A stretch of 64,000 nt of DNA from a virus (Duplodnaviria > Caudoviricetes), in IMG/VR virus record IMGVR_UViG_3300036966_000119, positions 96,001 through 160,000 of that record; one strand, given 5' to 3'. Made by a program: the position numbers and the translations under genes. Below are positions 191 to 54,941 of the stretch, one piece after another (position 1 is the stretch's first letter; the number at the start of each line of letters is the position of its first letter). The notes under the pieces are model-generated. The model worked only from the letters and a program-made list of their open reading frames with translations, was not told the origin of the DNA and did no database searches.

Positions 191-302
191 GATAATCCCC
201 CTCCTTTCTAATAGAATCATATATGTATATGTATTCTATAATCGTTGTTTTTCTATGCTACCGATAAAAGGTATGTAAATTCCTATTATTTCATATTTCT
301 AC

Positions 303-320
303 ATATATATTATTAATGTG
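303..320 (+). promoter_or_regulatory. putative early (virion RNAP) promoter ATATATATTATTAATGTG
   Basis: The same TATAT(T/C)(A/G)TT motif recurs upstream of about 8 non-structural genes and resembles TATATT-type early promoters of phiKZ/AR9-like phages. Confidence 0.6.
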
Positions 321-409
321 AAGAAGAAAAGAAAGTGAGCTTTCACCTCTTATCTTCTGATATAAATTACCGCAAGTGGCACGAAGCGGTTTATGTGCTG
401 GAGAATACC

Positions 410-4176: not shown

Positions 4177-5322
4177 ATGAATAATATTTTTGTTTATTAT
4201 GACGAAACAAATACACATCTTGTTTCATCAAATGGTATTGTACAAAACACTTTTGGTGATACAATAGAACCATATAAATCATCATCTAACATATTATATT
4301 CCCCATATACATTTGATGGTGGTATTACCCGACTCAAACGATTAGACATAATCATTGCATTAACTTTCAATCCTATTCCCGATGAATTGATTGGTCTACC
4401 ATTAACAGTTAAACATATCGATGGTAATCCAATTAATGTTTGTTCGGAAAATCTTGAATGGACTGAAGATATCGAAGAATGGAGGACGTCCCGTAAATTG
4501 AAAGGATATAAGATATCGTCATGGGGAAGAATAATGTCACCATATAATGAAATAATAAAAGGAACAAACAAAAATGGATATATAGCATTGACTATAAATG
4601 AAAGACCCGGTTCTGGCGATAAACGTGTAACGTATTTATTACATCGACTTGTTGCATCACTATTTATCGGTGATATAACTGATAAAGATGTCAACCATAT
4701 TGATGGTATTAGAAATAATCCAAGAGTGGATAATTTAGAAATAATTTCTCGTTGTGAAAATAATATTCACGCAATCAACATAGGAATGCATTCAAATAAG
4801 ATAAACGCCGAAACCGGTTTATTGATAGATGATTTATTATTCAAATATGAAGGATCACCAATTAAGGTTGTAAATCACATGAAATCATTAGGGTTTGATA
4901 ATATAACAGAAACCATTGTTGGTCATAGAAAGAAAAAATTAATAAAAAATGGATATAATTTTAAAGTAAAATATAGATTAAAACTAAATGACCCATTTCT
5001 TATGAAATTAATAATTGATTTACTTATCAAATATGACGGAAACGTACAAACTGTGTATTCTATTATAAACGAAAAATACCCAGATATTACAGATAAAAAT
5101 ATTAAGACTGTTAAAGCTAATTTATCACACAATGGTATTCATTTTAAGAATGGAATACATAATAGAAAAATTTCCGAAGAAGTTCGTAATCAATTATTGC
5201 GTTTATTAGAAATAAATAATTGGTCTGTTTCGGAGACCTATAAATATATTTCTAATTTTAAAGAGTTTGATCGTGTTTCTGTCTATGATTTAAAGTATCT
5301 GAAAAGGAAATATGGGGTATAA
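4177..5322 (+). CDS. free-standing HNH homing endonuclease (NUMOD4/HNH_3 type)
   Basis: YKISSWGRI (NUMOD4-like), HRLVA...VNHIDGIRNNPRVDNLE, plus a second N-terminal HIDGNPINVCSENLEW; visibly more AT-rich than neighbours; antisense to its operon. Confidence 0.85.
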   Translation: MNNIFVYYDETNTHLVSSNGIVQNTFGDTIEPYKSSSNILYSPYTFDGGITRLKRLDIIIALTFNPIPDELIGLPLTVKHIDGNPINVCSENLEWTEDIEEWRTSRKLKGYKISSWGRIMSPYNEIIKGTNKNGYIALTINERPGSGDKRVTYLLHRLVASLFIGDITDKDVNHIDGIRNNPRVDNLEIISRCENNIHAINIGMHSNKINAETGLLIDDLLFKYEGSPIKVVNHMKSLGFDNITETIVGHRKKKLIKNGYNFKVKYRLKLNDPFLMKLIIDLLIKYDGNVQTVYSIINEKYPDITDKNIKTVKANLSHNGIHFKNGIHNRKISEEVRNQLLRLLEINNWSVSETYKYISNFKEFDRVSVYDLKYLKRKYGV

Positions 5323-5334
5323 AATATACCCCAT
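5312..5334. terminator. hairpin between convergent HNH and resolvase genes
   Basis: ATGGGGTATA-aaa-TATACCCCAT. Confidence 0.55.
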
Positions 5335-5903
5335 TAATCCAATCGCATAGTCTTCTTGACGTTATCTGGTAATTCTTCCATATAAGTAATTGTAACCTCG
5401 TATCTCGGAGTACGAGAATAATATTTTTTTACATCAAGATCTGTTACAAGACAATCATCTCGTAATATACCCACATGTCCTCTTTTTTCATTCGGCATCA
5501 TTTGATCCATTACGGCTTTTGCAAAGTTATCAACATCTCCCGTATTACCCCATGGGCGAATAACTTTCATTTCAGCAAGTATTTGTTGTGTCTTTGTAAA
5601 AGACTTTGGTGTCTGACAAAATATGTCCACTTTTATTTTACAAGGAGTGGTTATAAACAATCCCTTCAATTTGGGTAGAACATTTCGATTGAAAAAAGAT
5701 TGATTCTTTGCAGCACCGGGTACATAGACCCGGTATCCACAAAGACGAGGACGGTGTGAAGGAACAGGTACCATTGGTATTATGAATGATACCTTGTTCC
5801 ATCTGATTCCAGAAAACACACCAAGTATGTCAGAGACTTTTGCTTGAACAGAATTAGTTGCATCGTTGAGCATTGCTTCAACGTTCTTCTGATTCATGTC
5901 CAT
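5334..5903 (-). CDS. rusA: RusA-like Holliday junction resolvase
   Basis: PVPSHRPR, GDVDNFAKAVMD (DxDNxxKxxxD), DDCLVTDLDVKKYYSRTPRYEVTI. Confidence 0.8.
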   Translation of the reverse strand: MDMNQKNVEAMLNDATNSVQAKVSDILGVFSGIRWNKVSFIIPMVPVPSHRPRLCGYRVYVPGAAKNQSFFNRNVLPKLKGLFITTPCKIKVDIFCQTPKSFTKTQQILAEMKVIRPWGNTGDVDNFAKAVMDQMMPNEKRGHVGILRDDCLVTDLDVKKYYSRTPRYEVTITYMEELPDNVKKTMRLD

Positions 5904-8908: not shown

Positions 8909-11900
8909 TTATTCAGTGAAACATAAACCTGGTCCAAGTTCAATTGTTGTATCTTCCGAACCATCAAACTCAAATAAATGATTTGGAATATCATTGAGAT
9001 ATCCCTTGAAGGTGAGTTTATGTTTCAAAGGAACAAAGTTTGGAGAAATCGTTAAATTACCATCTTTGTCAATGCATAAATCACCGTTATCCTTTAATTC
9101 ACCTTTCAGCTGAATACCGAGGATATTACCCTTGAATATTCTCAAACCATGAGTACCGACCGTAGTTGTATCGCAACCATCGTGTTTACTTCGTTCAACA
9201 GCGCTGTAGCTATCCGTGTCATTTATACGAATACAAAGATATCCTCCAGCATTAAATCTGAGACCGCCGTTCTTACAACTGTCATCCATAGCATAACCAG
9301 AACTTTTGTCTGCGATTTTTATTCCCAATTCATCACGGTAGTCATTTGCCGCAATAGCACGGATATCTGTTTCATCATTATAAACATATTCGTTATTGGT
9401 AGTCAAACCCTTGTATTCATTGTAACGAACTTTTACACCAGGCTCATAGTAGAATGATGCTAATTCAACGATAGGGTCTCCATCCGGACTAACGTAAATG
9501 CTGTGTTCGTCTAAGAGATACTTGAACCAAGATTCCTCCGTTGTGAGACCATCATATGCTCCGGTCGAAGACTTGGCAAAAAATGAAAGTACTGCTGATG
9601 CATCTCTCATATCAGGAACGCCACCATCTCGCAAAGCGTCAGCTCTTGCGATCAATGTGTCAGTTAATTCAAGATCCGCTATTATAGGATTACGCATCAT
9701 GTAATTATGACCTTCACGTATTACTCTGACATTGGTTCCCTCTATATAAAGATTTCCAATTATATATATTTCTCCCTCCTCAGTAGGAAGTAATGCAGTG
9801 CATTCAGGATCTGAGAAATAGTTTCCTTCCTTGTAATACGCAGTATGTTTATTTTTTGTCCATAATGTTTGTATAAGTGTCGCGTCACGAGCATCAATTA
9901 TACCATCATTAGTCACATCAGGAATACGTCTGTCAGTGACTGATTCAATGTATCTACTTGCCTTTACAAGATATCTACCGACAACATCCTGATCTTGTTC
10001 AACAAGAACAATTGTTCTATGTCTACCAATAAGATCCTGTCCGGTTCTTATTGAATCAAGGGCTAAGTCATATGACAATTGTGAACCATGAATTGAGAAA
10101 TAGTAGGTAAAACCGGGTGTTTCAAGATTCGATGAGAATATGTAGTATCTCTTTCCAGCAATATATACATGGTCTTCATCAAATTTTGTTGGGTCACCAC
10201 TATACTCTATTTCAAGATCCATTATACTCGACCATTGCTTTTCTTTATACAAATTCGGTATATTTATTTTACGGCCAAGGAATTCTTCGTCTATAAACAA
10301 ATGCGTTTCCAGGCATGAGTCTGTTGGATTTGGTATATCACTACTATGAACATGACTCGGTTTGTAAAATTTATAAGGTTTGATGCCTAAGACGTTATGA
10401 TCATAATCGAATAATATGGTAGAAGAACCATCATAGAAATATTCATTTATGTGGGTCGAATATATAGATAAACCTGACAGACCTCTCGCAGTATTTACAG
10501 CAAGCAAACCATGTTCTGGATATGTTATACCACCATCAACAAAATGGAGTCCACCTTCATTCCATGTTGTCTGGTTGCCATATTCAGGCTGGTATTTTAT
10601 ACCTTTAGCAATATTAATACCAAGGGAATTTGTTGGATTATCGGAATCATCAGTAACATTGTAAAGAGCTTTTGTCTTATCAATGCGAACATTTACTTTT
10701 CCTTCATTATAGTAATCGGTCCTGGTTTGTTTAACACTGTAAGAGTTATCGGAACTACCTATTTCGAGGAAGTCACCGACATTAACAGATAAACCACCTG
10801 AATGGTTTGTAATTGTTGATGCAGATGGATTACCTAACCAGGATGAATCTACATTGATTGTATCCTCATCAACACGTAAACCCGAAAGGTTTGTAGCATA
10901 CTTGTGGTCAACAGTATCCGTATAGATTCCCTTGACAAGATTTATACCAAGGAAGCTTGGATTCTCATGTCTAACCGGATGATATGGTGATTTATCTTGA
11001 GGATTTGGTTCTACATAACCTGATGAATATGCAGGAGGCCAGTTGCTTATTGTCAAACGATTTCCGTCATTGAAAACTTTCTTTGGTATTACGCAAAGAG
11101 AATAGTTTGGCAATATAAACATTGAACCTTTCTCATTACAACTACCATCAGTATCTGTTCTGTATATATCACCAGACAAGCCTGTTGGTAATATAGTTTT
11201 GAATGAACGTTTTGGAACATTGTTTCTTGTTTGATGGATTGTAGCAGTATCGTATGGTGAAAAAGCATTTATACCACTTAAAGGAACATCACCGTTGTCT
11301 CCCCACATTGACTCTTGATTCTTATCCTCAAGAATCTCAGAGTGCAATAAATCAACTGATAAAGCTTCAGATCCGATATCAGATGATGCAGTGTGGATAC
11401 TTTCATATTTAAGACCCTTGAAGAGAGGCTGTCTCATTGTGTAAAAATCAATGATATAATCCGTATCAGGATTCTCAGCAGTTGGTGCTTGTGTTACCAT
11501 TCCTATTGCAGGTTTACGAATCATCAACATAGGATTCATACCTATTGTCAATGTTCTACAAGTACCAGTTCCAACGGGATCTTGAAGATATAATTCATCA
11601 TTAAAGTTACAAATGATGATATCACCTTTTTCAAACGATTGTTTGATAAAATTAGTTCCACCAAACTGTGTATCTGGTGAAGGATACACGACAGGTCTGC
11701 GGTCTATTCTAAATGTGACTTCATGTACGGCAGCAGGCATACCTCCGGAATAGTATAATAATGCACCTGAATCTGAAGGATCTCCTGAACCATATACACC
11801 GTCAAACCAATATAATGTTGGCTTGATCTTGCTCTTATCAATGTATAATCCTGATTCAGATTTATTATCACTGAGATCATTATATACCTTAAGAGCATCT

Positions 11901-12502
11901 TCATACTTCCAGATGTTTACACCTATACGTCCTGATTCAGCATATTGTCTACCATTAACATTCTCATTGTAGATGATTGTGTTATCAGCAGAACCAACTG
12001 TATCAAGAGCTTTTTGAGCATGTTGAAGTCTGTTGTTGTCATAATAAATATATCCTATGTAACCACGTTTATCATTTTGATATCCATGTCTTGCATAGAA
12101 TGGTTTATTAGCGTAGATCTCATCATTGTTCCATACTGTGTTTATGGTTTCATCAAGTTCCTGTAAGGATTCAAACATCTCAATTCGTTTGTATCCCATC
12201 TCTTGCATTATTCTTGAAATCACCCATTCTTTTATGTCGGCAAATGAAACATTATCAACATTACCAAGACCTATAGTGGCAGAATCTATTATAACAACAC
12301 CGGTCATGCCATTAACACTATTGACAATACGTGACAGTTTATTGTTTATAGCGTTCCATATTCTTTCAATGGTTTTCTCCAGTGTTGCACCAGTCGTAGG
12401 ATCGTCAATAGACTTTGTATTTGATTTTGGATTTATATCGGTGAGGACCAACTCATTACCAACGACTTCTTCTTGTTTGAGTTGAACACGATCTTCGGCC
12501 AT
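8909..12502 (-). CDS. tail-fibre-like protein containing a dockerin domain
   Basis: VNSVNGMTGVV..IGLGNVDNVS fibre motif; recurring LGI/GL..G.L.V shaft-like repeats; two dockerin Ca-loop repeats (DVTNDGIIDARDATLI and ADALRDGGVPDMRDASAVLSFFAKSSTG). Confidence 0.7.
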   Translation of the reverse strand: MAEDRVQLKQEEVVGNELVLTDINPKSNTKSIDDPTTGATLEKTIERIWNAINNKLSRIVNSVNGMTGVVIIDSATIGLGNVDNVSFADIKEWVISRIMQEMGYKRIEMFESLQELDETINTVWNNDEIYANKPFYARHGYQNDKRGYIGYIYYDNNRLQHAQKALDTVGSADNTIIYNENVNGRQYAESGRIGVNIWKYEDALKVYNDLSDNKSESGLYIDKSKIKPTLYWFDGVYGSGDPSDSGALLYYSGGMPAAVHEVTFRIDRRPVVYPSPDTQFGGTNFIKQSFEKGDIIICNFNDELYLQDPVGTGTCRTLTIGMNPMLMIRKPAIGMVTQAPTAENPDTDYIIDFYTMRQPLFKGLKYESIHTASSDIGSEALSVDLLHSEILEDKNQESMWGDNGDVPLSGINAFSPYDTATIHQTRNNVPKRSFKTILPTGLSGDIYRTDTDGSCNEKGSMFILPNYSLCVIPKKVFNDGNRLTISNWPPAYSSGYVEPNPQDKSPYHPVRHENPSFLGINLVKGIYTDTVDHKYATNLSGLRVDEDTINVDSSWLGNPSASTITNHSGGLSVNVGDFLEIGSSDNSYSVKQTRTDYYNEGKVNVRIDKTKALYNVTDDSDNPTNSLGINIAKGIKYQPEYGNQTTWNEGGLHFVDGGITYPEHGLLAVNTARGLSGLSIYSTHINEYFYDGSSTILFDYDHNVLGIKPYKFYKPSHVHSSDIPNPTDSCLETHLFIDEEFLGRKINIPNLYKEKQWSSIMDLEIEYSGDPTKFDEDHVYIAGKRYYIFSSNLETPGFTYYFSIHGSQLSYDLALDSIRTGQDLIGRHRTIVLVEQDQDVVGRYLVKASRYIESVTDRRIPDVTNDGIIDARDATLIQTLWTKNKHTAYYKEGNYFSDPECTALLPTEEGEIYIIGNLYIEGTNVRVIREGHNYMMRNPIIADLELTDTLIARADALRDGGVPDMRDASAVLSFFAKSSTGAYDGLTTEESWFKYLLDEHSIYVSPDGDPIVELASFYYEPGVKVRYNEYKGLTTNNEYVYNDETDIRAIAANDYRDELGIKIADKSSGYAMDDSCKNGGLRFNAGGYLCIRINDTDSYSAVERSKHDGCDTTTVGTHGLRIFKGNILGIQLKGELKDNGDLCIDKDGNLTISPNFVPLKHKLTFKGYLNDIPNHLFEFDGSEDTTIELGPGLCFTE

Positions 12503-12656
12503 AAATGTCATCTCCTTCTTAAATATTGATTTAGTTTTTATGGAAAGTCAATGATTCCCGACCAAACCATAATGTATGTTTTAACCTTATTTTGGTAGAA
12601 CTTACCTCGAGGTTTCTATACATATTTAAATACATCAATAACAGGAGGTTTTAAAA

Positions 12657-20740: not shown

Positions 20741-23563
20741 TCACCAACTCCATCCGATGATAGTACCATTACCATCGGTTTGAGCCAATGGTTTTCCGGG
20801 TGGTATTCCTCTTGAGTTAGCAGTTCCGTCTCCGTATGAAGGTCTGTTGGTATAACGTAATAACCACTGCTTATTTGTAATATTTTTAATAGTAGTCATC
20901 GCAGTAGGTGTATCAGTCTTACCAACAATCTTTATCGGCATCCAGTTTGGTATAGGAGATTTAATCCACAGAGTCTGTGGACTTGTACCTGTAGCCTGTT
21001 CACACCATATGAAATTTTCACCATATGGAATGATTGCATTCAACGATTCCTGGAGGTAATAATGCTTCATGATTGTTGATGTTCTCAAATATTGACCAAA
21101 GTCTATTACTTGTATCTGAGCACCTACATTATTACCAGAAACATGATATCCTCTACAGATTGAAAGAACTATAGCACCACGAGTTGTATCACCTGATGTT
21201 GATTTGTATGTATATCTCAAATCGTAATTAACACGTGTTCCGAGATACTCATTATCAACATCAAAATCATTTAGACCCTGTGGCATTGTTGGATTATCCA
21301 TACGAATATAATGTGCTTTCTTAATATTACCCTTACCATATTCAGAGAATTTATATACGATGAATACATCATCAACAGATGTAAATCTTACATCACTGAG
21401 GCCAGAGTTGTATGGGATGTTATTTGTAAACGCTTCAGGAGTTCTACTTGAACCAGATGCAACGTTAACAACGAATGCATATGTTGAACCGTTTGTACAC
21501 CATACATAGTCTGAAACGCCATCAGAATGACCAAACATGAATGGTATATTTGATATTGTTGATGGGAATGGAATTGGTGAACCATCAACCGCACCAGTTG
21601 TGACATCATAGATGTACACCTTCTTGTCAGATGTACCAGCAGGAACATAAGCTACCTTATTAGTACCCCAAATACAACAAGACATCTTCCAGTCATGTTT
21701 ATGAGATACAAAGTTAGCACCACGTATATCAATGATAACACATTCTTCAACACCCGACTTAACTGATTGCATACAGATAATACCGGTACCGGATTCAGTT
21801 CTATAACATTCACTGTATGAATTAACAGTACCTGTGAATGGAAGTGTTTCTTCTGATGATGTTATAGTTGTTGGATCTTGACGACTTGTATCGGTTGCAA
21901 ATACTTTATTATTCACTGAATTGAACGTAATCAACCATTTTCCATATGTCATTGATTCAGTATTGGACGAGTCTCCTACTGTGTATACATACATAGATTC
22001 AGGGAAGTAAACTTTGTTTCCACGTAAGAACCATTTGTATGCATAGTTATCACAAGTATTTGCGATACCATATACGGTACCAAGACCACCATATGAAACG
22101 AATCCATTATCATCAGGAGTAGAACCGCCTGGTTCTAACAACTGGAATACGTCTGACTGACGTGTGAACTTTAAGTCGTTTGCTTTGACATTTGTTGATG
22201 TTATCCAGAAACGTTTCTGAGATGCTCCCTTAGAGGCAATATCATTGAAGTTATCAATGAATATCCATGTATCGAAATCCCAATAACTGTCGGTTGCATA
22301 TACTGACAATGAACCAACTGAGATTGAGAGTATGGGATCATCAGGACGTATATTCTGATAGAGATACGCAGTAATGATCTCTCTACCATTCCAGTAGTAT
22401 ATCGGAAGACCACATGTACTCTGTGCAGGTGTATCAGAATATAATCTATTATTTGGATTATAGACACTCATCTGAACATTCCATCCATCAGTCTTCCAGT
22501 CATACAGATAACCATTAGCTGTATTGAAATGTGTTATCGGAGGCCACTGATGTTTGTTGTAGTTAGCCGTATTTTCAGGAACCATACCAAACTTCTCAGA
22601 GAATCCAAGATGTTTGTAAGGTGTCTTTGACTGAAGATTGATAACATTCACTGCTTCAGGTGATGATAAGAATGCTGGTTCAAGAATACACATACCTGGT
22701 GTGTAATACAAGAAACCATCAATGTATCCTGAGTCATCTCCAGCACCATCGTACAATACAAATGAATTACAAATAGATGAATTTGTAAATACGTTTTCTT
22801 GTGTATTGTCGATTGTATGATAACCATCAGAATATGCATATGTCTGACGGTTGAATACTTTGTCATCACGTTTGTATGTGTATATGTTTGATTCAAACAT
22901 TCTGTGATACATGATTTGGTTGGTAGTAATCATAGTATATACATCATTAGCCCAACCGTTCTGAATCAGATGTTCATAGAATGATAAACACATATAAACT
23001 GTGATTATGAGTTTTTCATCCTGTTTCTTGACAATACTCGTACGAGTACCATCATCAGAATATATACGTGAATGTGTCCACAGATTATTCCATGCAGTAC
23101 CAATACCGTATTCTTCGATACGAGTATCTCCAGGGAAGTTATCGATATTCAAAGGATATTCGCATACCATGAATCTTGATATCAATGTAATTAAACCGTC
23201 ACCAGGCTCTGTTCCTGCGGCATAATACATTGGATATGCATAGTCCTTTGACGTGTCTGTGTTTGTAGCAGCAAGACCATTGAAGCAAACATTCTCAAGC
23301 TGTGTATCTTCTATTGTAACAGGAGTTGTACCCGAACCAACATAAAGCTTTACAGTACTTGATGCTTCAAATGCATTACCAAACTGATATACTGCTGAGA
23401 AACCAGTATTAGTCATTACATTCATACCATACTTCTCATCAGTAATATTTCCGTCTTTATCTACAGAGGTGAACACATAAATGTTTGATACTCCAGGATG
23501 GATCTTTTGTGAGTTCTTAACGAATTTCATTGCACGCATAAATATTTCGTCACGTTGGCTCAT
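20741..23563 (-). CDS. large tail-associated protein, paralog of 17488..20553
   Basis: ~940 aa; GGAGGAGG RBS favours MSQRDE start; NIY..DKDGNITDEKYGMN..TNTG, VGSG, EYGIG and ATDSYWD motifs. Confidence 0.6.
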   Translation of the reverse strand: MSQRDEIFMRAMKFVKNSQKIHPGVSNIYVFTSVDKDGNITDEKYGMNVMTNTGFSAVYQFGNAFEASSTVKLYVGSGTTPVTIEDTQLENVCFNGLAATNTDTSKDYAYPMYYAAGTEPGDGLITLISRFMVCEYPLNIDNFPGDTRIEEYGIGTAWNNLWTHSRIYSDDGTRTSIVKKQDEKLIITVYMCLSFYEHLIQNGWANDVYTMITTNQIMYHRMFESNIYTYKRDDKVFNRQTYAYSDGYHTIDNTQENVFTNSSICNSFVLYDGAGDDSGYIDGFLYYTPGMCILEPAFLSSPEAVNVINLQSKTPYKHLGFSEKFGMVPENTANYNKHQWPPITHFNTANGYLYDWKTDGWNVQMSVYNPNNRLYSDTPAQSTCGLPIYYWNGREIITAYLYQNIRPDDPILSISVGSLSVYATDSYWDFDTWIFIDNFNDIASKGASQKRFWITSTNVKANDLKFTRQSDVFQLLEPGGSTPDDNGFVSYGGLGTVYGIANTCDNYAYKWFLRGNKVYFPESMYVYTVGDSSNTESMTYGKWLITFNSVNNKVFATDTSRQDPTTITSSEETLPFTGTVNSYSECYRTESGTGIICMQSVKSGVEECVIIDIRGANFVSHKHDWKMSCCIWGTNKVAYVPAGTSDKKVYIYDVTTGAVDGSPIPFPSTISNIPFMFGHSDGVSDYVWCTNGSTYAFVVNVASGSSRTPEAFTNNIPYNSGLSDVRFTSVDDVFIVYKFSEYGKGNIKKAHYIRMDNPTMPQGLNDFDVDNEYLGTRVNYDLRYTYKSTSGDTTRGAIVLSICRGYHVSGNNVGAQIQVIDFGQYLRTSTIMKHYYLQESLNAIIPYGENFIWCEQATGTSPQTLWIKSPIPNWMPIKIVGKTDTPTAMTTIKNITNKQWLLRYTNRPSYGDGTANSRGIPPGKPLAQTDGNGTIIGWSW

Positions 23564-26500
23564 CTTCATCCTCCTCCTCTTTATTTGTAACAAGTCTAAC
23601 CGATATTATCTTATCATATTCCGTTTTATCAACATCGAATTTTGTTATATGCTCTGCATCAGAATATGGGATTAACGGATAGGTTATATCACCGACATGT
23701 ACGACCATATATGAATCACGGAATTCAACAAATCTTTCATCATATGTAAATCTTTCTTCATACTCTGCATTTGTTATAATAACAAACTGATCGTATTTGT
23801 AACCCAGATTATATTTAGCATAATCAGTGAAGTTAGCAACATACAATTTGAAGTTAGCAGCAAAGAAAAATCCTTTAAATGTGAAAGGTCTATAGAGATT
23901 GCTACTGGAGTCCCAATAGTTCATTGTTAGACCCATTGCAGTAACAGTAAATCTATCGGATTTAATGTCATATATGTATAATGTCGGTGAGTTTGTAATT
24001 GTTATGTACAATGCACCATTCTCACAGTCTATTGTACGTGGAATAAGTGATTGATATGGTGTTGGTACAGTTCGCATTGCAAATGGTGTGCCATCGTCAA
24101 CTGTCGCAGCCATTGTATCTTCATTAATAATGTAGATGTAGTTCTGCTGAGTTATATAGAATTTACCATCAGCATAACAGCAACAGTTTCGTGCTTTTAA
24201 TGTCCATTGACCAAATGTATCTTTAAAAGAATACCATGTATCTGTTGACATATCATATACCCAAGCAGTTTGTGAATTACCGTTGTACAGCGTTAATATA
24301 AAACGTTTACCAACGGCAAAATCTGCACATATCTCATTCATTGAAGGTGAACGATGTTGGGTCCATCTTTGACGTATGGTATCATAGAAATAGAATCCAT
24401 GATTATAGTTGATAACAAATGTATGGTCATCAAGCCAAACCATCTTACCATAAGCAGTAAAGTTTTCGTCTGAACCAGGACTCAATGGCTGAATAGTATC
24501 ATCATTTGGCTCCACAGGAACTCTCCAAATTGTTTTACCGAAGCTTTGATTAGATGCTGCGATATATAAATAATCGTCATCAGCAAGTAATCCTCCATAG
24601 TATACACTGGAACCACCCATAGATGATTTTGGTATATCTTTCACTATTGATATCTGGTTTGTGAGTAAGTTTAACTTTGTGAATCTAACGATTCTATTGT
24701 TGCATAATGTAGCACAATAGATCATTCTGTTATGTTCACAACATACACCTGACTCAATAGAAGTAATTGCTTCTTGACCAGCATCGATGTAACCACCGAT
24801 ATATGATCTATTGTTAGATGGAACCTTTGTGGATGAACCGACAGGAAGAAGATCAATATGTTCTATCGTCTTTTCTTTCTTTTCATGTTCATGATAAGAT
24901 ATCTCACCTTGAGTTTGTGCAGTTATCGAATACAACTTTGGTTCGAAGTTTGGTATATCGTTCAACTTTGCTTTTATCGTAAATTCGATACGAGCATTTT
25001 CAGCAACACCCTTACGAACACCTGATACTTCAAAGTCGGTTGTTTCTGTATCGATATCAGCATCGATTATTATTTTCTTTAACAAGTTTGGTGTGTATTC
25101 AACAACATTGATTTCTTGTTCTTTTGGAAGAACTTTGAATATCACATTAGTGAATCCTGTACTTTGTGGGTCATATACATAAACTGTATAATTATTCAAT
25201 AAACCAGCATCGGAATAAAATCTTGATGCACCGTATTGAATGAAATCCTCTTCAGTCGGATCTCCGTCAGATAAGAAAGTCCATGTTTCGGTTGTCTTAT
25301 CAAAATACTTAAGACCCTCGTCATCTTTACACATAAAGCTCATGTAGTTTACGGAGGAAACAAGTATCTCTGCTTTGGCGATACCATAATAATGGTTTAC
25401 ATCGTTTGCAGCCATGTATGTATCTGACAAGTAGTATTCTGATCCTAATGCATAACCAGTGGGTTTATACGATTCTGCAGTGAGAACATATCCAGAACCG
25501 CCACATCCTCCTGCATCATCATCAGCATGAGAGTCAGGAATGCATCCAGAACCACCGAACCAACCAGAACCTCCAGCACCACCGAAACCGTTGTTTTCAG
25601 CAACACCGGAACCACCATATCCAAATCCACCACCAACACGTGTGTTATTAGGTGATTCAGTTTGTGTACCAGGTCCTGGAACGGTACCAACTATTGAATT
25701 GCTCCAAAGACCATTCGTACCACCACCAGCACCGCCGAAACGATTACCGGATTTTTCAGCAGAACCATGTCCTCCAGCACCACCGGCGACAATAAGTCTG
25801 TGATTCAGAGTGTCTTGTACTATACGAATATCGGTAGCACCACCACCGAATGTTGAACGATAGTCATTTGGATCACCTGCAGCACCACCACCATTGAATG
25901 CAAGTGCTGGATTTATTAACAGTGCTTGATCGTAGTCATATGAGTATCTGATACCGGATCCACCAACTCTTACGAATATTGGCGTACCCCCCTCAAGAAT
26001 CAATGATCCCTCAGAATAACCACCACGAGCGACGTTGGATATTGTGTAACGAGTACCACCATCACCACCGGTACATTTAAATGTATATTCACCAACAGGA
26101 AGTTCGATGTTCTCCATCCAACCTACTAATGGGAATATGAGTTTGTCTCCAGCTTCAATTGTAAGTGTTTCTTTACAGATAATGATTCCAGCTTGTTCAG
26201 CAGTACCACCCATCATACAGATGTCTGTAAATAATACATCTGGATCGACTACATAGTCTTGTGGTTTATATGATGAAGATGTTACAACATAACCAGAACC
26301 ACCACCACCAGCGGTAGTGTTTCTTTCTTGGGTTCGTTCAGTGGAATAACCACCAAACCAACCTCCGCCTCCACCACCAGAACCTTCGGCATTATATGAC
26401 ATAATGGTTGTCTTATCAGGTGGAGTCATTCCAACACCGAATGAATATCCGGATGTTTGATCAGCACACATATCGTAGTATTGGTCGGTATCGTAACAAC

Positions 26501-28028
26501 CTACAGCACCACCAAGTGCACCACCACCTACACCGAAGTGAGATGGGAGATAGGTGGTTGAGTATGTGTAGTAACTACCACCACCTCCACCGCCAGCGAC
26601 AATGATACGTGACCACAGATCAATGTCAATAATCTTTGTTTCATTGTATATCGTTTTTGTCTGAACGGGGTCTCCGACGGTGAAATCATTACCAGTACCT
26701 TTTCCATGAATCTCATCATTTACAAGATCATACAATCCGTTTACAACAGTTGATTCATAATACTTCAGACCAACGCTCGTTATATCTGACACGGATATTG
26801 TACTGTCGTTTGCTCTTCTGATTACAAATCTGAAATAATGTGCTTGTGAAGGTATTTCAATTTTACTTTCACTTGATACCCATCCATCGTGATATGATAA
26901 AAATTGCTGATCAGAATCGTAAAAAATATAAAGCACTTCCAGATTAGTCGATGCTGTACCAGATACTGAGATATATTTATGAGCTGGATCGATCTGGATA
27001 TATGTCTGAGATCTAATTCGTATTGATTCAACAGATGAATCATCATTATCTTCACCCAGAGGTTGTGTCGTCGAATTTATTGAACCTTGTGAAAGTTGAA
27101 CATTTGAAACATCTATCTCAGTTCCAGTATTAACAAATGGAACGAAGAATCTCTTCAAGCCTGATGGATCAGATAGCTTCAAATACCTGACTGAAACTTT
27201 ACTGTTTTCTTTTACAGTACCATTGTAGTTTGCTGCAAACAGATAGATGTTGCACCCACTTGAAAAAGTCTTCGGCGATACAGAATAATCATCACCATTA
27301 ACGGTCAATACGTTATTAGCAAAAGACATCGTTGTATCTTCATCTTGACTCATGTGGGCTGGTATACCGGCATTACCATATGCGAAAACACCGGATATGG
27401 GTGTATAACTACTATTGCCCAAAGTTGTAAGATAATAGCTGTCACGCAACCATGAGCTTGAATTTGAATTCGAAGCAAATATTGTACCATAATTACTACT
27501 GCCAATATTACTATGTGGGGTAAATCTCATTTCAAAGGAAATATCATTTGAACCAATAACACCAGTGTCAAGGTACTGTGTTCCATCAGAACGAATATAT
27601 TCAACTTCAGTAAGCCAGTCTGGTACTTGATGCTGTACTGTGATTTCTCTACCACCTTCATTTGTCAAACGTACATCAGAAGCACCACCGCCACCACATC
27701 CATTTTTATATGATGAACTATATGACTTACCACCATCAGCACCACCGTTCCAACCTCCGGCACCAATAACACTTGTTGTGCCGACACCTCCATCACCACC
27801 AACGGCAGCATAGAAAGTTTTATCAGTTTGAAGGTCTAAGATACCATAAGATGTTCCACCGATTGGTGCTGGTGGTTTATTACTATCAGGGAAAGTACCA
27901 CCTTTGGCACCTTTACATATGAAGAGATACTTTCCGGGTGTTAATGAGAATTCTTCAACGTCACCTGTATATGAAAACGTCTTGTGTGGTTTCCATAATC
28001 TGTTTTTATAAACATACACGTCACCCAT
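23550..28028 (-). CDS. glycine-rich (Gly_rich_2/ALK-LTK-like) tail or receptor-binding protein
   Basis: Two FSYTG/GA.GG...GG.S.G...GGGGASDVR/ATDIR...RIIVAGGGGG...GGGW.GG...GGGGSGYV domains; inserted EYI.SDGTQY.DTG lectin-like block; propeller-like C-terminus. Confidence 0.75.
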   Translation of the reverse strand: MGDVYVYKNRLWKPHKTFSYTGDVEEFSLTPGKYLFICKGAKGGTFPDSNKPPAPIGGTSYGILDLQTDKTFYAAVGGDGGVGTTSVIGAGGWNGGADGGKSYSSSYKNGCGGGGASDVRLTNEGGREITVQHQVPDWLTEVEYIRSDGTQYLDTGVIGSNDISFEMRFTPHSNIGSSNYGTIFASNSNSSSWLRDSYYLTTLGNSSYTPISGVFAYGNAGIPAHMSQDEDTTMSFANNVLTVNGDDYSVSPKTFSSGCNIYLFAANYNGTVKENSKVSVRYLKLSDPSGLKRFFVPFVNTGTEIDVSNVQLSQGSINSTTQPLGEDNDDSSVESIRIRSQTYIQIDPAHKYISVSGTASTNLEVLYIFYDSDQQFLSYHDGWVSSESKIEIPSQAHYFRFVIRRANDSTISVSDITSVGLKYYESTVVNGLYDLVNDEIHGKGTGNDFTVGDPVQTKTIYNETKIIDIDLWSRIIVAGGGGGGSYYTYSTTYLPSHFGVGGGALGGAVGCYDTDQYYDMCADQTSGYSFGVGMTPPDKTTIMSYNAEGSGGGGGGWFGGYSTERTQERNTTAGGGGSGYVVTSSSYKPQDYVVDPDVLFTDICMMGGTAEQAGIIICKETLTIEAGDKLIFPLVGWMENIELPVGEYTFKCTGGDGGTRYTISNVARGGYSEGSLILEGGTPIFVRVGGSGIRYSYDYDQALLINPALAFNGGGAAGDPNDYRSTFGGGATDIRIVQDTLNHRLIVAGGAGGHGSAEKSGNRFGGAGGGTNGLWSNSIVGTVPGPGTQTESPNNTRVGGGFGYGGSGVAENNGFGGAGGSGWFGGSGCIPDSHADDDAGGCGGSGYVLTAESYKPTGYALGSEYYLSDTYMAANDVNHYYGIAKAEILVSSVNYMSFMCKDDEGLKYFDKTTETWTFLSDGDPTEEDFIQYGASRFYSDAGLLNNYTVYVYDPQSTGFTNVIFKVLPKEQEINVVEYTPNLLKKIIIDADIDTETTDFEVSGVRKGVAENARIEFTIKAKLNDIPNFEPKLYSITAQTQGEISYHEHEKKEKTIEHIDLLPVGSSTKVPSNNRSYIGGYIDAGQEAITSIESGVCCEHNRMIYCATLCNNRIVRFTKLNLLTNQISIVKDIPKSSMGGSSVYYGGLLADDDYLYIAASNQSFGKTIWRVPVEPNDDTIQPLSPGSDENFTAYGKMVWLDDHTFVINYNHGFYFYDTIRQRWTQHRSPSMNEICADFAVGKRFILTLYNGNSQTAWVYDMSTDTWYSFKDTFGQWTLKARNCCCYADGKFYITQQNYIYIINEDTMAATVDDGTPFAMRTVPTPYQSLIPRTIDCENGALYITITNSPTLYIYDIKSDRFTVTAMGLTMNYWDSSSNLYRPFTFKGFFFAANFKLYVANFTDYAKYNLGYKYDQFVIITNAEYEERFTYDERFVEFRDSYMVVHVGDITYPLIPYSDAEHITKFDVDKTEYDKIISVRLVTNKEEEDEDEPT

Positions 28029-30009: not shown

Positions 30010-30048
30010 GGAAGTGATCATAACCATCGTCCATTGTAAATATCTTCA

Positions 30049-30174
30049 TCATCCATCGTAATCATCATCGTCATCATCGTCGATATAGTTATCACATGAC
30101 AATGATGTTACAAGAATACCTATAAGAATTGAGAGTATAGTTATAACTCCCCCTATTAACCATTTATTTTTCAT
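30049..30174 (-). CDS. 41-aa membrane peptide with poly-Asp tail (not in ORF track)
   Basis: MKNKWLIGGVITILSILIGILVTSLSCDNYIDDDDDDDYDG*; ATGA overlap with the upstream stop. Confidence 0.55.
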   Translation of the reverse strand: MKNKWLIGGVITILSILIGILVTSLSCDNYIDDDDDDDYDG

Positions 30175-36021: not shown

Positions 36022-37743
36022 TCATTTCATTTCAGGGAATTCAAGTTCCATTCCACCGATAGAGTCAATACATACCTGAAGGTACTCTGTCTGAGAAGCA
36101 ACGTAATATACGTTCTTATCTTTCATGAGTTTGTACAGAGGTGGCTCTGCTATATAGAGCTTACCAGCCCTGATGATATCTGGTAAGAACTTAACAAAGA
36201 ATGCACATATACCAACACGGATATGATATCCATCAATATCAGCATCAGTAGCTATGATTATTTTATCGAAGTAAAGTTTCCTGATATCGAATGTTGGTCC
36301 TATTCCACATCCAAGAACCTTAACCAGATTCAACCAAGGAACTGACTGAAGTGCTCTATCAAGAGTGAGATCCCATACATTCAAAGATTTACCTCTGAAT
36401 GTTAATATGGCCTGATACTTTGCATTTCTTGCACCCTTAAGTCCACCGCCTGCGGAATTTCCTTCAACAAGGAATAGTTCTTTTGGTTCGGGAGTTATGA
36501 TTGTTGCACAAGGATAATATGAATCAGGCTTCTGCCATGACTTTAATGCCTTGGTAGTTGATGCAACATTTCTCATCTTTTCTCCTTCGATACGAGCTCG
36601 ATGGTTACCGATAACAACTTCGGCCATTTCATTCAGTACCGAATCATTGGACTTTGATAATACGTTATAAGCAGCTTCTTCAATTGCTTTACCAAGTACT
36701 CTGTTGTCGACTGAATGTTTACTTTGTGATGTAAACATATGTGCACAGTTTGTGCCTGCCTTTACAACGATATTCATATGTGCAAGAATATCTTTCTTGA
36801 GATCAACACCTTCGAGTTTCTTCTGCTTGCGAATAACTCGTTCTGTTATCGCCTTACTGAAACCCCTGATGATTCCATCAACATGAGCACCATTCTGTGG
36901 AGTATGAATCATATTCATCCAAGAATGACGTACATCATCACCTTTGTATTTATCCGGATCAGAATATGTGATTGCAACAGATACTTCGAAATGTCTATCA
37001 AATACTTCCTCGTCAAACTCTTCTTTCAACTGACCAGAACATTCGAACACGAGATCATTACATAATCTCGCATCCAATGGAACGAACTGCTCAAAGAACT
37101 GGAATAATTCTTTATGACGAACCGTTGTTGTATCCCCATTGATTGTATAAATCATATTGGTTGATCGTGGCAAAGTATAATCTGCATCAGCAAGCCATGT
37201 TTTCATGAGTTCAGTAGGGATAGTATCAACACCGAGTAACTTTCTTGAAGGCTTAAATGTTACAATAAGACCATGTTCATTTCCTGTGTAGGATTCTTTC
37301 TTCTCATCAAACAGAACTCCGTTCTTATATATGAGCGTCATCCTACATTTCTCGGTTGGTCTTATTGTTACTATCTCAAGATATGATGATAATGCCAACA
37401 CACAGGTTGAACCACCAACACCATTCTCACCAGTACTTTCACCATGAGCTCGTGTCATCTTTGTGCCTGCTTGAATAGTTTCATATACCTCTCTGATTAT
37501 ATTGGTCGGAATACCTCTACCGTTATCACGGACTGTTATCTGTTTATCAGTCATCATGATTTCTATCTTGTTACCAGGTGATTCAGTATTACTACATTCA
37601 TCTTTACTGTTGTCAACCAATTCTTTACAAAGATGGAATACACCAAGGTCTCCAAGATTGGCAATGTACATTGTTGGTCTGGCCTGGATCTTCTCTACAT
37701 CGTTTTTGATGATATTATATTTATCATCTTTAATCTTTGGCAT
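36022..37743 (-). CDS. gyrB: type IIA topoisomerase GyrB, N-terminal part (GHKL ATPase + TOPRIM)
   Basis: RPTMYI, ELVDNSKDE, DNGRGIP, GENGVG, LVEGNSAGG, FRGKSLN, IATDADIDGYHI, PPLY; AAGGAGG RBS favours MPKIK start. Confidence 0.9.
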   Translation of the reverse strand: MPKIKDDKYNIIKNDVEKIQARPTMYIANLGDLGVFHLCKELVDNSKDECSNTESPGNKIEIMMTDKQITVRDNGRGIPTNIIREVYETIQAGTKMTRAHGESTGENGVGGSTCVLALSSYLEIVTIRPTEKCRMTLIYKNGVLFDEKKESYTGNEHGLIVTFKPSRKLLGVDTIPTELMKTWLADADYTLPRSTNMIYTINGDTTTVRHKELFQFFEQFVPLDARLCNDLVFECSGQLKEEFDEEVFDRHFEVSVAITYSDPDKYKGDDVRHSWMNMIHTPQNGAHVDGIIRGFSKAITERVIRKQKKLEGVDLKKDILAHMNIVVKAGTNCAHMFTSQSKHSVDNRVLGKAIEEAAYNVLSKSNDSVLNEMAEVVIGNHRARIEGEKMRNVASTTKALKSWQKPDSYYPCATIITPEPKELFLVEGNSAGGGLKGARNAKYQAILTFRGKSLNVWDLTLDRALQSVPWLNLVKVLGCGIGPTFDIRKLYFDKIIIATDADIDGYHIRVGICAFFVKFLPDIIRAGKLYIAEPPLYKLMKDKNVYYVASQTEYLQVCIDSIGGMELEFPEMK

Positions 37744-52646: not shown

Positions 52647-54941
52647 ATGGAACAGAAAGAGATCAATAATGTAAACAACAAAATCAGACGTCGTCGTGGT
52701 ACGATGAACACTGCATCCGAAATCGATAAACGTGCAGAAGAAGTATCACCAATGTCTTTGTTTGGTGCATCAGCAATGGTGTTTCCGGACAAGATATCTA
52801 CCATTCGTGGTGTTATGGGTACACGTCATACATCACAACGTGTTGTTTTAATCAATCCTGAATTCCCCCGTTTGTATACCGGTGCTGAAAATGAATTCGG
52901 TGACAGATCGTCTTGGAACATCAAGACACCAGATGATTGTGAACTGGTACGAACCTTTAGGAAGTTCAAGGATTCCGCAATATCACCAATTGCGTATATC
53001 TTTAAAAATCTGAGGACTGGTAAATATTCGTGTCATGTTGTAAAGCCATGTCACCATCTCGTTGAGAAATACGGTTTCCGTATGAACAATGCGATTCATG
53101 GTAAATACAATGACGGAGATATCTTACCAAAAGGAACCACAATTGCACAATCTTCATCATATGTAAATGATAACTATTGTGCTGGTAGAAATCTCAGAAT
53201 GATATACACAGTACTTCCGGAGCTCACAGAGGATGCTCTTGTTATTTCAGACAGAGCAGCAAAGGCATTGGAATATGACATGGTCGATATTGTAACTGTC
53301 AATATCAAACAAAGTTCTTTCCTTCTGAATAAATACGGAAATGAACAACTGTACAAACCTTTCCCGAATATAGGAGAGGAAATACAGGATGACATTCTCT
53401 GTTCTATCAGAGAAAACTCCTATTTATCATCTGCATCAGAAGCACTGATTCCTCATATCAATGATACCAACTACTGTTCACATGGTATCGTAGTTGATAT
53501 GGATATATATTCCAACGTCGATGTTGAGAATGATCAGTATAACTATTATCTCGGTCAGATACGTGACTGGTATTCTGACATTTATGCTTTCATCTCAACT
53601 ATCGTAGATGATCCCTATCAGGACGACACATCTCTGTTGGATATCTATCATCAGGCCGAAAAATACTTAAACAATTCAAAGTGGGTAACCAAAGAAGATA
53701 TTGTTGATACTGTAATAAAGTTCACAATACTTCAGCCAAAGGAAATCCATGTTGGACAGAAGGTTGTTGGTCGTTATGGTAACAAGTCTGTTATTGCGAA
53801 GATTATTCCATGGCAGCTTATGCCAAGAACCGTTGAGTATGATGAAGATGGTAAACCAATCCCTGGCACGGAAGAACCAATCGATATGTTGTGTAATGCA
53901 CTTGCTGTTCCAAACAGAATCATTGCATTTGCAACATATGAATCAACTATGACATTCATGATGGAAAGAATGTGGCAGCATGTTCTTGACCTTGATGAAA
54001 AGAAGGTTCCACATGATGAAATCATGAACACTGCAATCGACTTTGTTGAAACTTTCAATCCTCAGCAGGGTGGAGAATTGAGACGTATCTACAATGAAGC
54101 TCCAAATGAAACATATGCAGATCTTATTAAAAATGGATTCTATATTCAGATCCAGCCACTCAATGAGAAATGTGTACGTGACTCAATTCTTGAGGCTTAC
54201 GAGAAATGGCCTAAGATTATGAGATACTACAAGATTCAGTCAAAGCTTCGTCACAGATGGGTCGATATTGGTGGAACATATCCAGTGGGTTACCAGTACA
54301 CATGGGTTCTTAAACAGGAACCTTCAAAGGCTATGTCTACTGTTGCTACAGGTAGAACAACTCTCTATGATCAGCCTGTTAAGACCAGAAGATATAACAA
54401 GAATCTTATTCCTTATTCTGACAACCCTATCAAGTATGGTGAATATGATACCTACAACTTCCTTGCAGGTATGGGTGTTAAAGCCTTCTCTAAGATATCC
54501 ACATACTATCGTGGTTCTCAGTATGAAGAAAACTCAATACTCATGTCACATCTCAATGGCATTGGTATTGATACTTCGAAATACAATCAATTTCCACAAC
54601 TTGATAATTTAAAGAACATATTAAAGCTGTTAGGCACTGAACTCCAGACTGATTTATATTGGTATGATACCATCGGTAATGTCGATGAAATACATGACGT
54701 AAAGATCGGTAATGTGGATGTTCCGATTTCTATACCGGACCTTCACTATATGCTTATTATGCATTCATACTATTTACAGTATGCTGCATACAAGCAGGGA
54801 TCATTCGATATGATAGATTTCTTTGCTCAGATGAGTAATACCAATACCTTTATAGGATTAAGCCAGGAGTACATTGACTATCTCTTCAATAAGTTCATCA
54901 ACCTTCTGCCCGTATTACAGCAGAGAAAACAGTATAACTAA
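52647..54941 (+). CDS. multisubunit RNA polymerase beta C-terminal subunit (probably non-virion RNAP)
   Basis: R..M...H.SQ....PE.P...TG.E, GRNL, EDALVIS, GQKVVGRYGNKSVIAKI, LKQ, KYGEYD. Confidence 0.9.
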   Translation: MEQKEINNVNNKIRRRRGTMNTASEIDKRAEEVSPMSLFGASAMVFPDKISTIRGVMGTRHTSQRVVLINPEFPRLYTGAENEFGDRSSWNIKTPDDCELVRTFRKFKDSAISPIAYIFKNLRTGKYSCHVVKPCHHLVEKYGFRMNNAIHGKYNDGDILPKGTTIAQSSSYVNDNYCAGRNLRMIYTVLPELTEDALVISDRAAKALEYDMVDIVTVNIKQSSFLLNKYGNEQLYKPFPNIGEEIQDDILCSIRENSYLSSASEALIPHINDTNYCSHGIVVDMDIYSNVDVENDQYNYYLGQIRDWYSDIYAFISTIVDDPYQDDTSLLDIYHQAEKYLNNSKWVTKEDIVDTVIKFTILQPKEIHVGQKVVGRYGNKSVIAKIIPWQLMPRTVEYDEDGKPIPGTEEPIDMLCNALAVPNRIIAFATYESTMTFMMERMWQHVLDLDEKKVPHDEIMNTAIDFVETFNPQQGGELRRIYNEAPNETYADLIKNGFYIQIQPLNEKCVRDSILEAYEKWPKIMRYYKIQSKLRHRWVDIGGTYPVGYQYTWVLKQEPSKAMSTVATGRTTLYDQPVKTRRYNKNLIPYSDNPIKYGEYDTYNFLAGMGVKAFSKISTYYRGSQYEENSILMSHLNGIGIDTSKYNQFPQLDNLKNILKLLGTELQTDLYWYDTIGNVDEIHDVKIGNVDVPISIPDLHYMLIMHSYYLQYAAYKQGSFDMIDFFAQMSNTNTFIGLSQEYIDYLFNKFINLLPVLQQRKQYN

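Follow-up and report, generated by a model that had tools for sequence, protein, structure and literature searches.

A dockerin module in a phage fibre-like protein

The question raised by this locus is whether a phage fibre carries a dockerin, the plug of its host's own surface-assembly system, and uses it to attach to a bacterium whose surface displays cohesins. The window analysed here is a stretch of 64,000 nucleotides that comprises bases 96001–160000 of a 172,576-bp IMG/VR record (172.6 kb). The gene in question, P0001 (window 8909–12511, minus strand), was taken from the list of open reading frames (ORFs) and their translations, and encodes a fibre-like protein of 1200 aa as an ORF. Residue numbering throughout is that of the 1200-aa ORF, and all coordinates given within the gene refer to the minus strand. 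A preliminary description of this DNA had placed two dockerin-type repeats, followed by a W..YL motif, in the ~1200-aa protein at window positions 9510–9925. Both motifs are present, with a similarity far beyond chance (E 1.2e-8 in a profile search of the PDB), and the coordinates are right, corresponding to aa 863–1001. The complete module, including an insert, spans aa 863–1005 (window 9497–9925), as delimited by an AlphaFold2 (AF2) model, by VIA-align and by the PDB profile, and is almost certainly a dockerin with an inserted beta domain. Cohesin-mediated adsorption to a Ruminococcus-like host is the best reading of its role, with a probability of roughly 0.55.

Sequence of the module

The module contains two tandem Ca-loop/helix repeats (aa 865–886 and aa 958–984), which were aligned to the repeats of 34 short dockerins and to those of solved dockerins. 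The first repeat begins with DVTNDGIIDARDATLIQ (aa 865–881) and consists of the Ca loop D865–D876 and helix 1 (aa 865–886; window 9854–9919); the stretch recognised by Pfam Dockerin_1 covers residues 865–884. Helix 1 is separated from the linker helix by a beta-rich insert (aa 887–949; window 9665–9853), which was delimited by the strands of the model. The linker helix and repeat 2 (aa 950–984; window 9560–9664) were placed by alignment to the orthologues P0004–P0006 and to the ScaH and CttA dockerins. The motif of repeat 2, LTDTLIARADALRDGGVPDMRDASAVLSFFAKSSTG (aa 949–984), includes a non-canonical 13-residue loop, DALRDGGVPDMRD, and then helix 3, DASAVLSFFAKSSTG. It is followed by W995..YL, which falls in an extra C-terminal helix 4 (aa 991–1003, EESWFKYLLDEHS; window 9503–9541) that aligns to the end of the ScaH dockerin and whose tail, W..(F/Y)L, recurs in the dockerins of prophage distal tail (Dit) proteins.

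Five homologues of 1197–1207 aa were found, and both repeats are kept in every one; the two motifs are conserved in all six close homologues and in at least five distant ones. The insert measures ~63 aa (residues 887–949) by the model and ~75 aa when counted from motif to motif, and its motif (F/Y)Y(S/T)D.E.T is kept across all split-dockerin homologues. The label phage-type that had been given to the insert has to be withdrawn, since it matches no known phage domain.

A family profile was built from six orthologous segments and compared with the 177,635 distinct sequences of PDB chains. Its matches are all dockerins (eight at E ≤1), led by the ScaH dockerin 8ajy_B (1.2e-8), the X-dockerin dyad (XDoc) of CttA in 4wkz_A (1.6e-8) and 4iu2 (6.4e-8), and the group-2 dockerin 9gvb_B (3.9e-4). 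Against 1.84 billion representative proteins, the same profile returned 528 matches, among them six clusters of ~1200 aa that span the whole module including the insert, along with short dockerins of two repeats in their hundreds. Phage tail proteins, rather than secreted enzymes, make up many of the best short matches in this large search.

Predicted fold

The alignment used for folding combined 16 fibre-family segments with 34 short dockerins (50 rows); repeat 1 pairs with repeat 1 and repeat 2 with repeat 2 in it, and the insert falls in a gap. With this alignment, which was itself seeded with dockerin hits found by the profile, AF2 produced a model with a predicted local distance difference test (pLDDT) value of 93.7 and a predicted template modelling score (pTM) of 0.86. 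An alignment of six rows gave a pLDDT of 47 and was uninformative. The model is composed of helix 1 (model positions 25–37), a five-strand beta insert (38–100; strands 38–45, 48–50, 66–73, 79–86 and 89–91, at a pLDDT of ~95), the linker helix (102–108), helix 3 (119–132) and helix 4 (142–154).

A comparison of the model with 48,161 PDB representatives using VIA-align placed dockerins at all ranks from 1 to 14, with unrelated chains at Z values below 3. The top match, 8ajy_D, superimposes over 84/84 residues with a Z of 9.0, a root mean square deviation of 2.5 Å and 30% identity, and 2ccl_B does so over 62/62 residues with a Z of 5.8. The expectation that the module, folded on its own, would be predicted as a dockerin is thus borne out. 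Foldseek against the PDB also places three R. flavefaciens dockerins at the top, although with weak support (best 8ajy_B, E 4.9e-3; none reach 0.001), because the insert breaks the alignment. In a shape search of the ESM Atlas, the nearest cluster is represented by a 244-aa dockerin protein and is 50% viral; Bacillota dockerin proteins, including a transglutaminase type, come next.

Dockerin type and model of the complex with a ScaE cohesin

Group-4 dockerins (the XDocs from ScaB and from CttA, and those of ScaF, ScaH, ScaI and a peptidase) and truncated group-2 dockerins bind the sortase-anchored ScaE cohesin, and 8AJY is the structure of this cohesin bound to the ScaH dockerin (PMC12270676, PMC5301203). 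In ScaE-binding dockerins a helix 4 is added to the fold, and positions 10 and 11 of the loops hold a Gly-Arg pair (PMC12270676, PMC5301203). Helix 4 of the phage module aligns to the C-terminal helix of the ScaH dockerin, in a match that extends over the full 84 residues. The profile, the fold and the predicted complex together support the assignment of the module as a Ruminococcus flavefaciens-type dockerin, as its signature had suggested from the outset, with the group-4 and group-2 ScaE binders as its nearest relatives. The preliminary description had named cellulosome and surface cohesins alike as targets. Because the closest solved relatives bind cell-wall ScaE, this surface anchor is the likeliest target, and the part of the proposal that concerns enzyme-carrying scaffoldins is less likely.

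The ScaE orthologue of R. flavefaciens SAb67 (P0176:28-215) was taken from the sca cluster L037, in which the genes follow one another in the order ScaC, ScaA, ScaB, CttA, ScaE. The parts of this ScaE are a signal peptide, the cohesin, a linker rich in Thr, the motif SPKTG and a membrane anchor. The complex was predicted with this cohesin aligned with 16 genus orthologues and with two Ca ions included. The phage module and the SAb67 cohesin reached a median score of 0.74 (0.60, 0.74 and 0.77 in the three runs), against 0.16 for the best of three controls. Among solved complexes 58 of 80 reach the mark used for this score, and among mismatched pairs 2 of 110; custom alignments and ions fall outside this calibration. 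The pLDDT of the partners was at least 88, and contacts agree between runs in at least 0%. The predicted interface is formed by helix 1 (aa 871–886, with A874 and R875 at its centre), helix 3 (aa 971–984) and the loop before helix 4. A945 and D946 are the only insert residues that contact the cohesin, so that the insert leaves the binding face uncovered in the model. The prediction supports cohesin binding, in line with what had been proposed for a Ruminococcus partner.

Architecture of the fibre-like protein

The true start of P0001 is probably the second ATG, at 12502, which would give a protein of 1197 aa beginning with MAEDRV, because AAGGAG precedes it by 9 nt and the orthologues P0005 and P0006 begin there. 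The same AAGGAG Shine-Dalgarno sequence abuts the first ATG of the ORF at 12511. The N-terminal anchor domain (aa 1–140; window 12092–12511) is the most conserved part of P0001 and is common to at least 161 clusters, at 50–99% identity, in proteins of 686–2026 aa encoded on contigs of up to 279 kb. Precomputed Pfam matches vary among these anchor-sharing proteins and comprise Dockerin_1, two adenovirus-fibre families (in a few of them) or Peptidase_M23. At the opposite end, the C-terminal fibre domain (aa 1006–1200; window 8909–9496) is marked by GGLRFN.GG.L.IRIN and NILGIQL repeats and is 66–96% identical among close homologues.

A homologue encoded in IMGVR_UViG_3300010163_000018 (1116 aa; L004:3001-6351) has retained 680 aa at the N-terminus and 140 aa at the C-terminus, so that the C-terminal fibre domain is present in a protein that has no dockerin; its middle region differs from that of P0001, which represents a module swap. 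Identity to P0002 is 98% at the N-terminus and 84–90% in the dockerin region. Among close homologues identity is lowest across aa 701–1005, and no part of P0001 evolves faster than the dockerin region. Receptor-binding fibres typically combine a conserved anchor with a distal part that is exchangeable and evolves fast. The succession of anchor, repetitive shaft and variable distal region in the P0001 sequence supports its assignment to the phage fibres or receptor-binding proteins.

A tblastn search of GenBank phages gave no match to P0001, to the dockerin segment of P0004 or to the phage-type dockerin P0017, and a scan of GTDB genomes with the whole-fibre alignment found no relative. In a Protein Atlas feature search of aa 1–700 every score was below 0.9, and these are leads only.

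Dockerins on other phage tail proteins

A hidden Markov model built from the short dockerins detects dockerins in 44 of 121 proteins of the N-terminal-anchor fibre family, with E-values that hold for that small set. Some are unsplit (P0248, aa 834–908; P0197, aa 847–920) and others double (P0198, P0201). By-eye inspection of the unsplit and double forms shows both loops and the GW..FL helix, and Pfam mostly misses them. The split form is thus an elaboration, in one lineage, of a widespread fibre feature. Rather than a host dockerin captured recently, as initially supposed, the module is a conserved component of a large family of jumbo-phage fibres.

Dockerins also recur on tail proteins of another kind. 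Dit-like proteins (PHROG 33, E down to 2.7e-12) end in Pfam-significant dockerins. This Dit-dockerin family was found in 16 GTDB genomes: 12 bear the title Ruminococcus, and three of these are R. flavefaciens, with SAb67 among them, while the remainder comprises one Oscillospiraceae genome and three metagenome-assembled genomes of Clostridia. The Dit-like gene of the SAb67 prophage (L016:7992-8726, NZ_UETD01000003.1) encodes 244 aa with a C-terminal dockerin (Dockerin_1, 43.1 bits) and is flanked by the gene for a tape-measure-sized protein of 999 aa and by a Prophage_tail gene. Eight of 76 candidates in the SAb67 genome match the jumbo-fibre profile at E ≤0.001. The best match is the prophage Dit dockerin (40.9 bits vs 27), and the next ones include the CttA XDoc and a cohesin-plus-dockerin adaptor. 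The few SAb67 dockerins that match the phage profile include those of a 383-aa adaptor scaffoldin with a cohesin-linker-dockerin layout (L089:496-1647) and of a secreted protein of 243 aa, in which the dockerin is N-terminal (L086:1102-1833).

A third type of protein is represented by the metagenomic P0024 (415 aa), a phage structural protein or fibre that contains choline-binding repeats and, at the C-terminus, two dockerin repeats. Over 200–300 N-terminal residues it matches the Ruminococcus phages NatCom_29429 (65%) and NatCom_23091 (44%), in which the GenBank genes are annotated as hypothetical. Cohesin-dockerin hijacking could be a general adsorption strategy of Ruminococcus phages, in which unrelated virion proteins would each have acquired a group-4-like dockerin for the sortase-anchored ScaE-type cohesin, the same socket by which the cell retains its cellulosome; we regard this as a tentative generalisation whose odds fall somewhat short of even.

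Host and availability of cohesins

We infer a Ruminococcus host from the sequence of the dockerin, because its nearest relatives point there. Of 61 genomes sampled from the genus, 58 yielded ScaE-type cohesins, and SAb67 has 11 Pfam cohesin matches. DNA matches between the phage and Ruminococcus genomes are 30–66 nt long, and those inspected correspond to AT-rich ribosome-binding-site regions or to dockerin-coding DNA. Further short DNA matches lie at window positions 263–337, 30037–30097, 37479–37538 and 54559–54612.

Proposed role and alternative explanations

In the proposed mechanism the fibre would display the dockerin, in several copies per fibre if it is trimeric. After lysis, in Ca-rich gut or rumen fluid, the dockerin would fold with Ca2+ outside the cell and would plug into a surface cohesin of a Ruminococcus-like host, most likely a sortase-anchored ScaE-type cohesin or a ScaH/ScaG-type relative. 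This contact would serve as a first, reversible adsorption step, or would retain the virion on cellulosome-coated cells and fibre, and infection would be completed by other parts of the fibre or by other tail proteins.

A number of observations weigh against this reading, the first group of which concerns the module itself. The two repeats had been described as dockerin-type Ca-loop/helix repeats. Loop 1 is acceptable, with D, T, D, D and D at Ca-ligand positions 1, 3, 5, 9 and 12 (N at position 3 in four orthologues). Loop 2 of the window's clade is degenerate. It has 13 residues and a Leu at ligand position 3, and because of this extra residue and the Leu one Ca site may be lost or weakened in the window's copy. 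The altered loop makes the two repeats asymmetric. Loop 2 is canonical in P0004, DADRDGVIDGSD, and near-canonical in P0005 and P0006, which have 12-residue variants without the extra residue (DADRNGVVDASD and DANRDDRINGSD), and single-loop group-2 dockerins retain binding (PMC12270676). The recognition pairs at positions 10 and 11 are A874-R875 and M968-R969 in the window, that is, A-R and M-R and not G-R. Orthologues carry G-R and N-R (P0002), A-V and G-R (P0003), S-T/G-S (P0004), G-T/A-S (P0005) and S-R/G-S (P0006). P0001 also scores below the cut-off of Pfam Dockerin_1 (PF00404; 22.9 bits), with 12.6 bits for the whole protein and 19.5 bits for aa 840–1010; Pfam detects the first repeat only, and the insert splits the match to the model. 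The anticipated Dockerin_1 match is thus obtained for the orthologues P0004 (27.5 bits) and P0005 (27.2 bits), both repeats being detected, and not for P0001, with P0003 (20.3 bits) and P0006 (21.6 bits) also below the cut-off.

Other points concern the partner, the host and the virion. The complex model shows likeness, not binding, because similar complexes have been solved, the cohesin came from a stand-in species and our own alignments were used, and its score may reflect memory of 8AJY and 4IU3. The ScaE cohesins of the cell are normally filled by the XDocs from ScaB and from CttA, which are held by very strong bonds (PMC5301203), and few sockets may therefore be free. Matching of CRISPR (clustered regularly interspaced short palindromic repeats) spacers, from which a host identification had been hoped for, gave none: three 20-kb DNA pieces were compared with 161 Ruminococcus genomes, with only two candidates scored per genome, so that spacers could have been missed, and no spacer-like match was found. 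One candidate was rejected, as it lies outside any repeat array. Within P0001 the dockerin is internal, with 195 aa after it, and therefore away from the fibre tip. With respect to annotated tail-fibre families, P0001 has weak PHROG matches only, to 'minor tail protein' (E 0.0076 to 0.045, within aa 54–93), and it is from the features described above that we infer a location in the virion, as well as the Ca dependence, the cohesin binding, the host and the role in adsorption.

If the dockerin does bind cohesins, it could do so as a tether to cellulosome-coated plant fibre, biofilm or shed cellulosomes and not as a receptor-binding element, with infection left to other receptor-binding proteins. 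Such a tether would raise encounters with fibre-attached hosts, in the manner of the Ig-like capsid domains that adhere to mucus. The internal position of the dockerin would suit it, as would the further giant fibre-like proteins encoded nearby and the abundance of cohesins on scaffoldins away from the wall, which the 11 matches in SAb67 illustrate; the fold and the complex model apply to it equally. We nonetheless consider it unlikely, given that the closest relatives are the dockerins for wall-anchored ScaE and not those of the enzyme-type groups 1, 3 and 6, that siphophage prophages carry the dockerin on Dit, at the tail tip, the site of host contact, and that shed cellulosomes would be decoys too. 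Similarly improbable is that the module has no cohesin partner and is a structural, Ca-stabilised EF-hand-like knob kept for the stability or folding of the fibre. Non-cellulosomal dockerin-like modules are widespread in bacteria and archaea, and a structural role would accommodate the degenerate loop 2 of the window's clade, the first loop of P0051, which lacks its ligands, the low Pfam scores and an insert that doubles the size of the module. It fits less well with the retention of the cohesin-facing residues of helices 1 and 3 and of the x-Arg pairs, and with a confident complex model that uses the canonical face. Moreover, a module that is the fastest-evolving part of its protein and is swapped out in L004 behaves as a specificity determinant more than as a brace, and the dockerin recurs on unrelated tail proteins (Dit and other fibres) of Ruminococcus phages.

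The dockerin might also be an assembly joint that binds a cohesin-like module encoded by the phage, and would then attach to the fibre some accessory protein or enzyme, or else join the fibre itself with the baseplate. The record is just 64% complete (CheckV estimate), and divergent ruminococcal cohesins escape sequence models (PMC13463774). Nevertheless, PF00963 and a ScaE-type profile found no cohesin in the 172.6-kb record, within the limit that divergent cohesins could escape these models, and PF00963 found none in four related viral records (27–92% complete). This absence weakens the case for a partner within the phage. A second dockerin was not found in the 172.6-kb record either, and the small Ruminococcus prophages with a Dit dockerin sit in genomes rich in host cohesins. 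An assembly joint is consequently the least probable of the explanations considered, and adsorption through a host cohesin is retained as the preferred one.

Phage record and neighbouring genes

The genes of the record include split RNA polymerase beta subunits, a topoisomerase II, a tail-sheath-like protein and several proteins of 950–1492 aa, and the phage was therefore classified as a jumbo phage. A near-identical fibre protein, P0167, sits on a contig of 274,282 bp. The other giant fibre-like proteins near the fibre gene have 1406, 1024, 950 and 1492 aa. The last of these (window 23550–28028, minus strand) contains the ALK/LTK glycine-rich domain PF12810 (E 1.3e-63, in three stretches) and has a weak tail-fibre PHROG match, and is, by its sequence, a candidate for another host-recognition protein. 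At window 4177–5322 (plus strand) and 5334–5903 (minus strand), a gene for an HNH endonuclease (PHROG 59, E 6e-37) neighbours one for a RusA-like resolvase in antisense orientation, the pair being set within the structural-gene block.

Implications

If the fibre dockerin binds a host cohesin, it would represent a new class of phage-host recognition for which a toolkit is at hand, in the form of cohesin arrays, isothermal titration calorimetry and solved ScaE complexes. Hosts could then be predicted for a large clade of uncultured jumbo phages (44 of the 121 anchor-sharing fibres), and phage predation would be tied to the cellulosome anchor of key fibre degraders of the rumen and gut. The naturally split dockerin, with its insert of ~63 aa, would be a new part for cohesin-dockerin engineering. 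Should the strategy be general, the host would have to trade fibre degradation against resistance to phages. The prophage of the cultured R. flavefaciens SAb67 is the easiest system in which cohesin-mediated adsorption can be tested.

Comparison with known systems

The statement that no phage receptor-binding protein of this kind has been characterised agrees with the literature that was searched, where no paper was found on a dockerin carried by a tail protein or receptor-binding protein of a phage. Published work comes nearest with a viral contig that contains dockerin genes and stems from an enrichment of anaerobic methanotrophic archaea (ANME; PMC13452462). The 'dockerin' of E. coli phage HSE2 was discarded as a precedent, as the term refers there to a carbohydrate-binding module (CBM) template.

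The closest match in both sequence (E 1.2e-8) and structure (Z 9.0) is the group-4 dockerin of ScaH (8AJY), a type also found in ScaF, ScaI and a peptidase. Like the phage module, it is formed by two Ca-loop/helix repeats and a helix 4, and in each of them the two repeats have Arg at recognition position 11; helices 1 and 3 form the face by which the phage module is predicted to bind. By contrast, the phage module resides on a cytoplasmically made fibre that lacks a signal peptide, is internal rather than C-terminal, and is distinguished by the beta insert of ~63 aa, a 13-residue loop 2 with Leu at position 3 and the A-R and M-R pairs.

The XDocs of CttA and ScaB (4IU2, 4IU3, 4WKZ) also bind ScaE and tolerate large insertions, and are the second-best match in sequence (1.6e-8), with Z values of 5.7–6.4. 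They differ in that three insertions clamp the upstream X module, which forms a stalk (PMC5301203), whereas the phage dockerin has a single insert at another place; no X module was detected. The Dit dockerins of Ruminococcus prophages, on which no paper was found, share the tail YDG(L/M)(T/S).E.(S/A)W..YL with the phage module (BLASTP 6e-9), but are contiguous, C-terminal and Pfam-significant, and belong to a small siphophage baseplate protein.

Phage receptor-binding proteins recognise glycans or outer-surface proteins by means of dedicated phage folds. Evolved Dit proteins and fibres of phages of Gram-positive bacteria carry carbohydrate-binding modules, and Ig-like capsid domains adhere to mucus, all of them grafted modules for a reversible first contact. 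These grafted modules bind glycans, while the phage dockerin is a protein-protein plug from the host's own surface-assembly system. What is new here is thus a receptor-binding fibre whose putative binding module is the assembly plug of its host, in the form of a dockerin with a novel insert.

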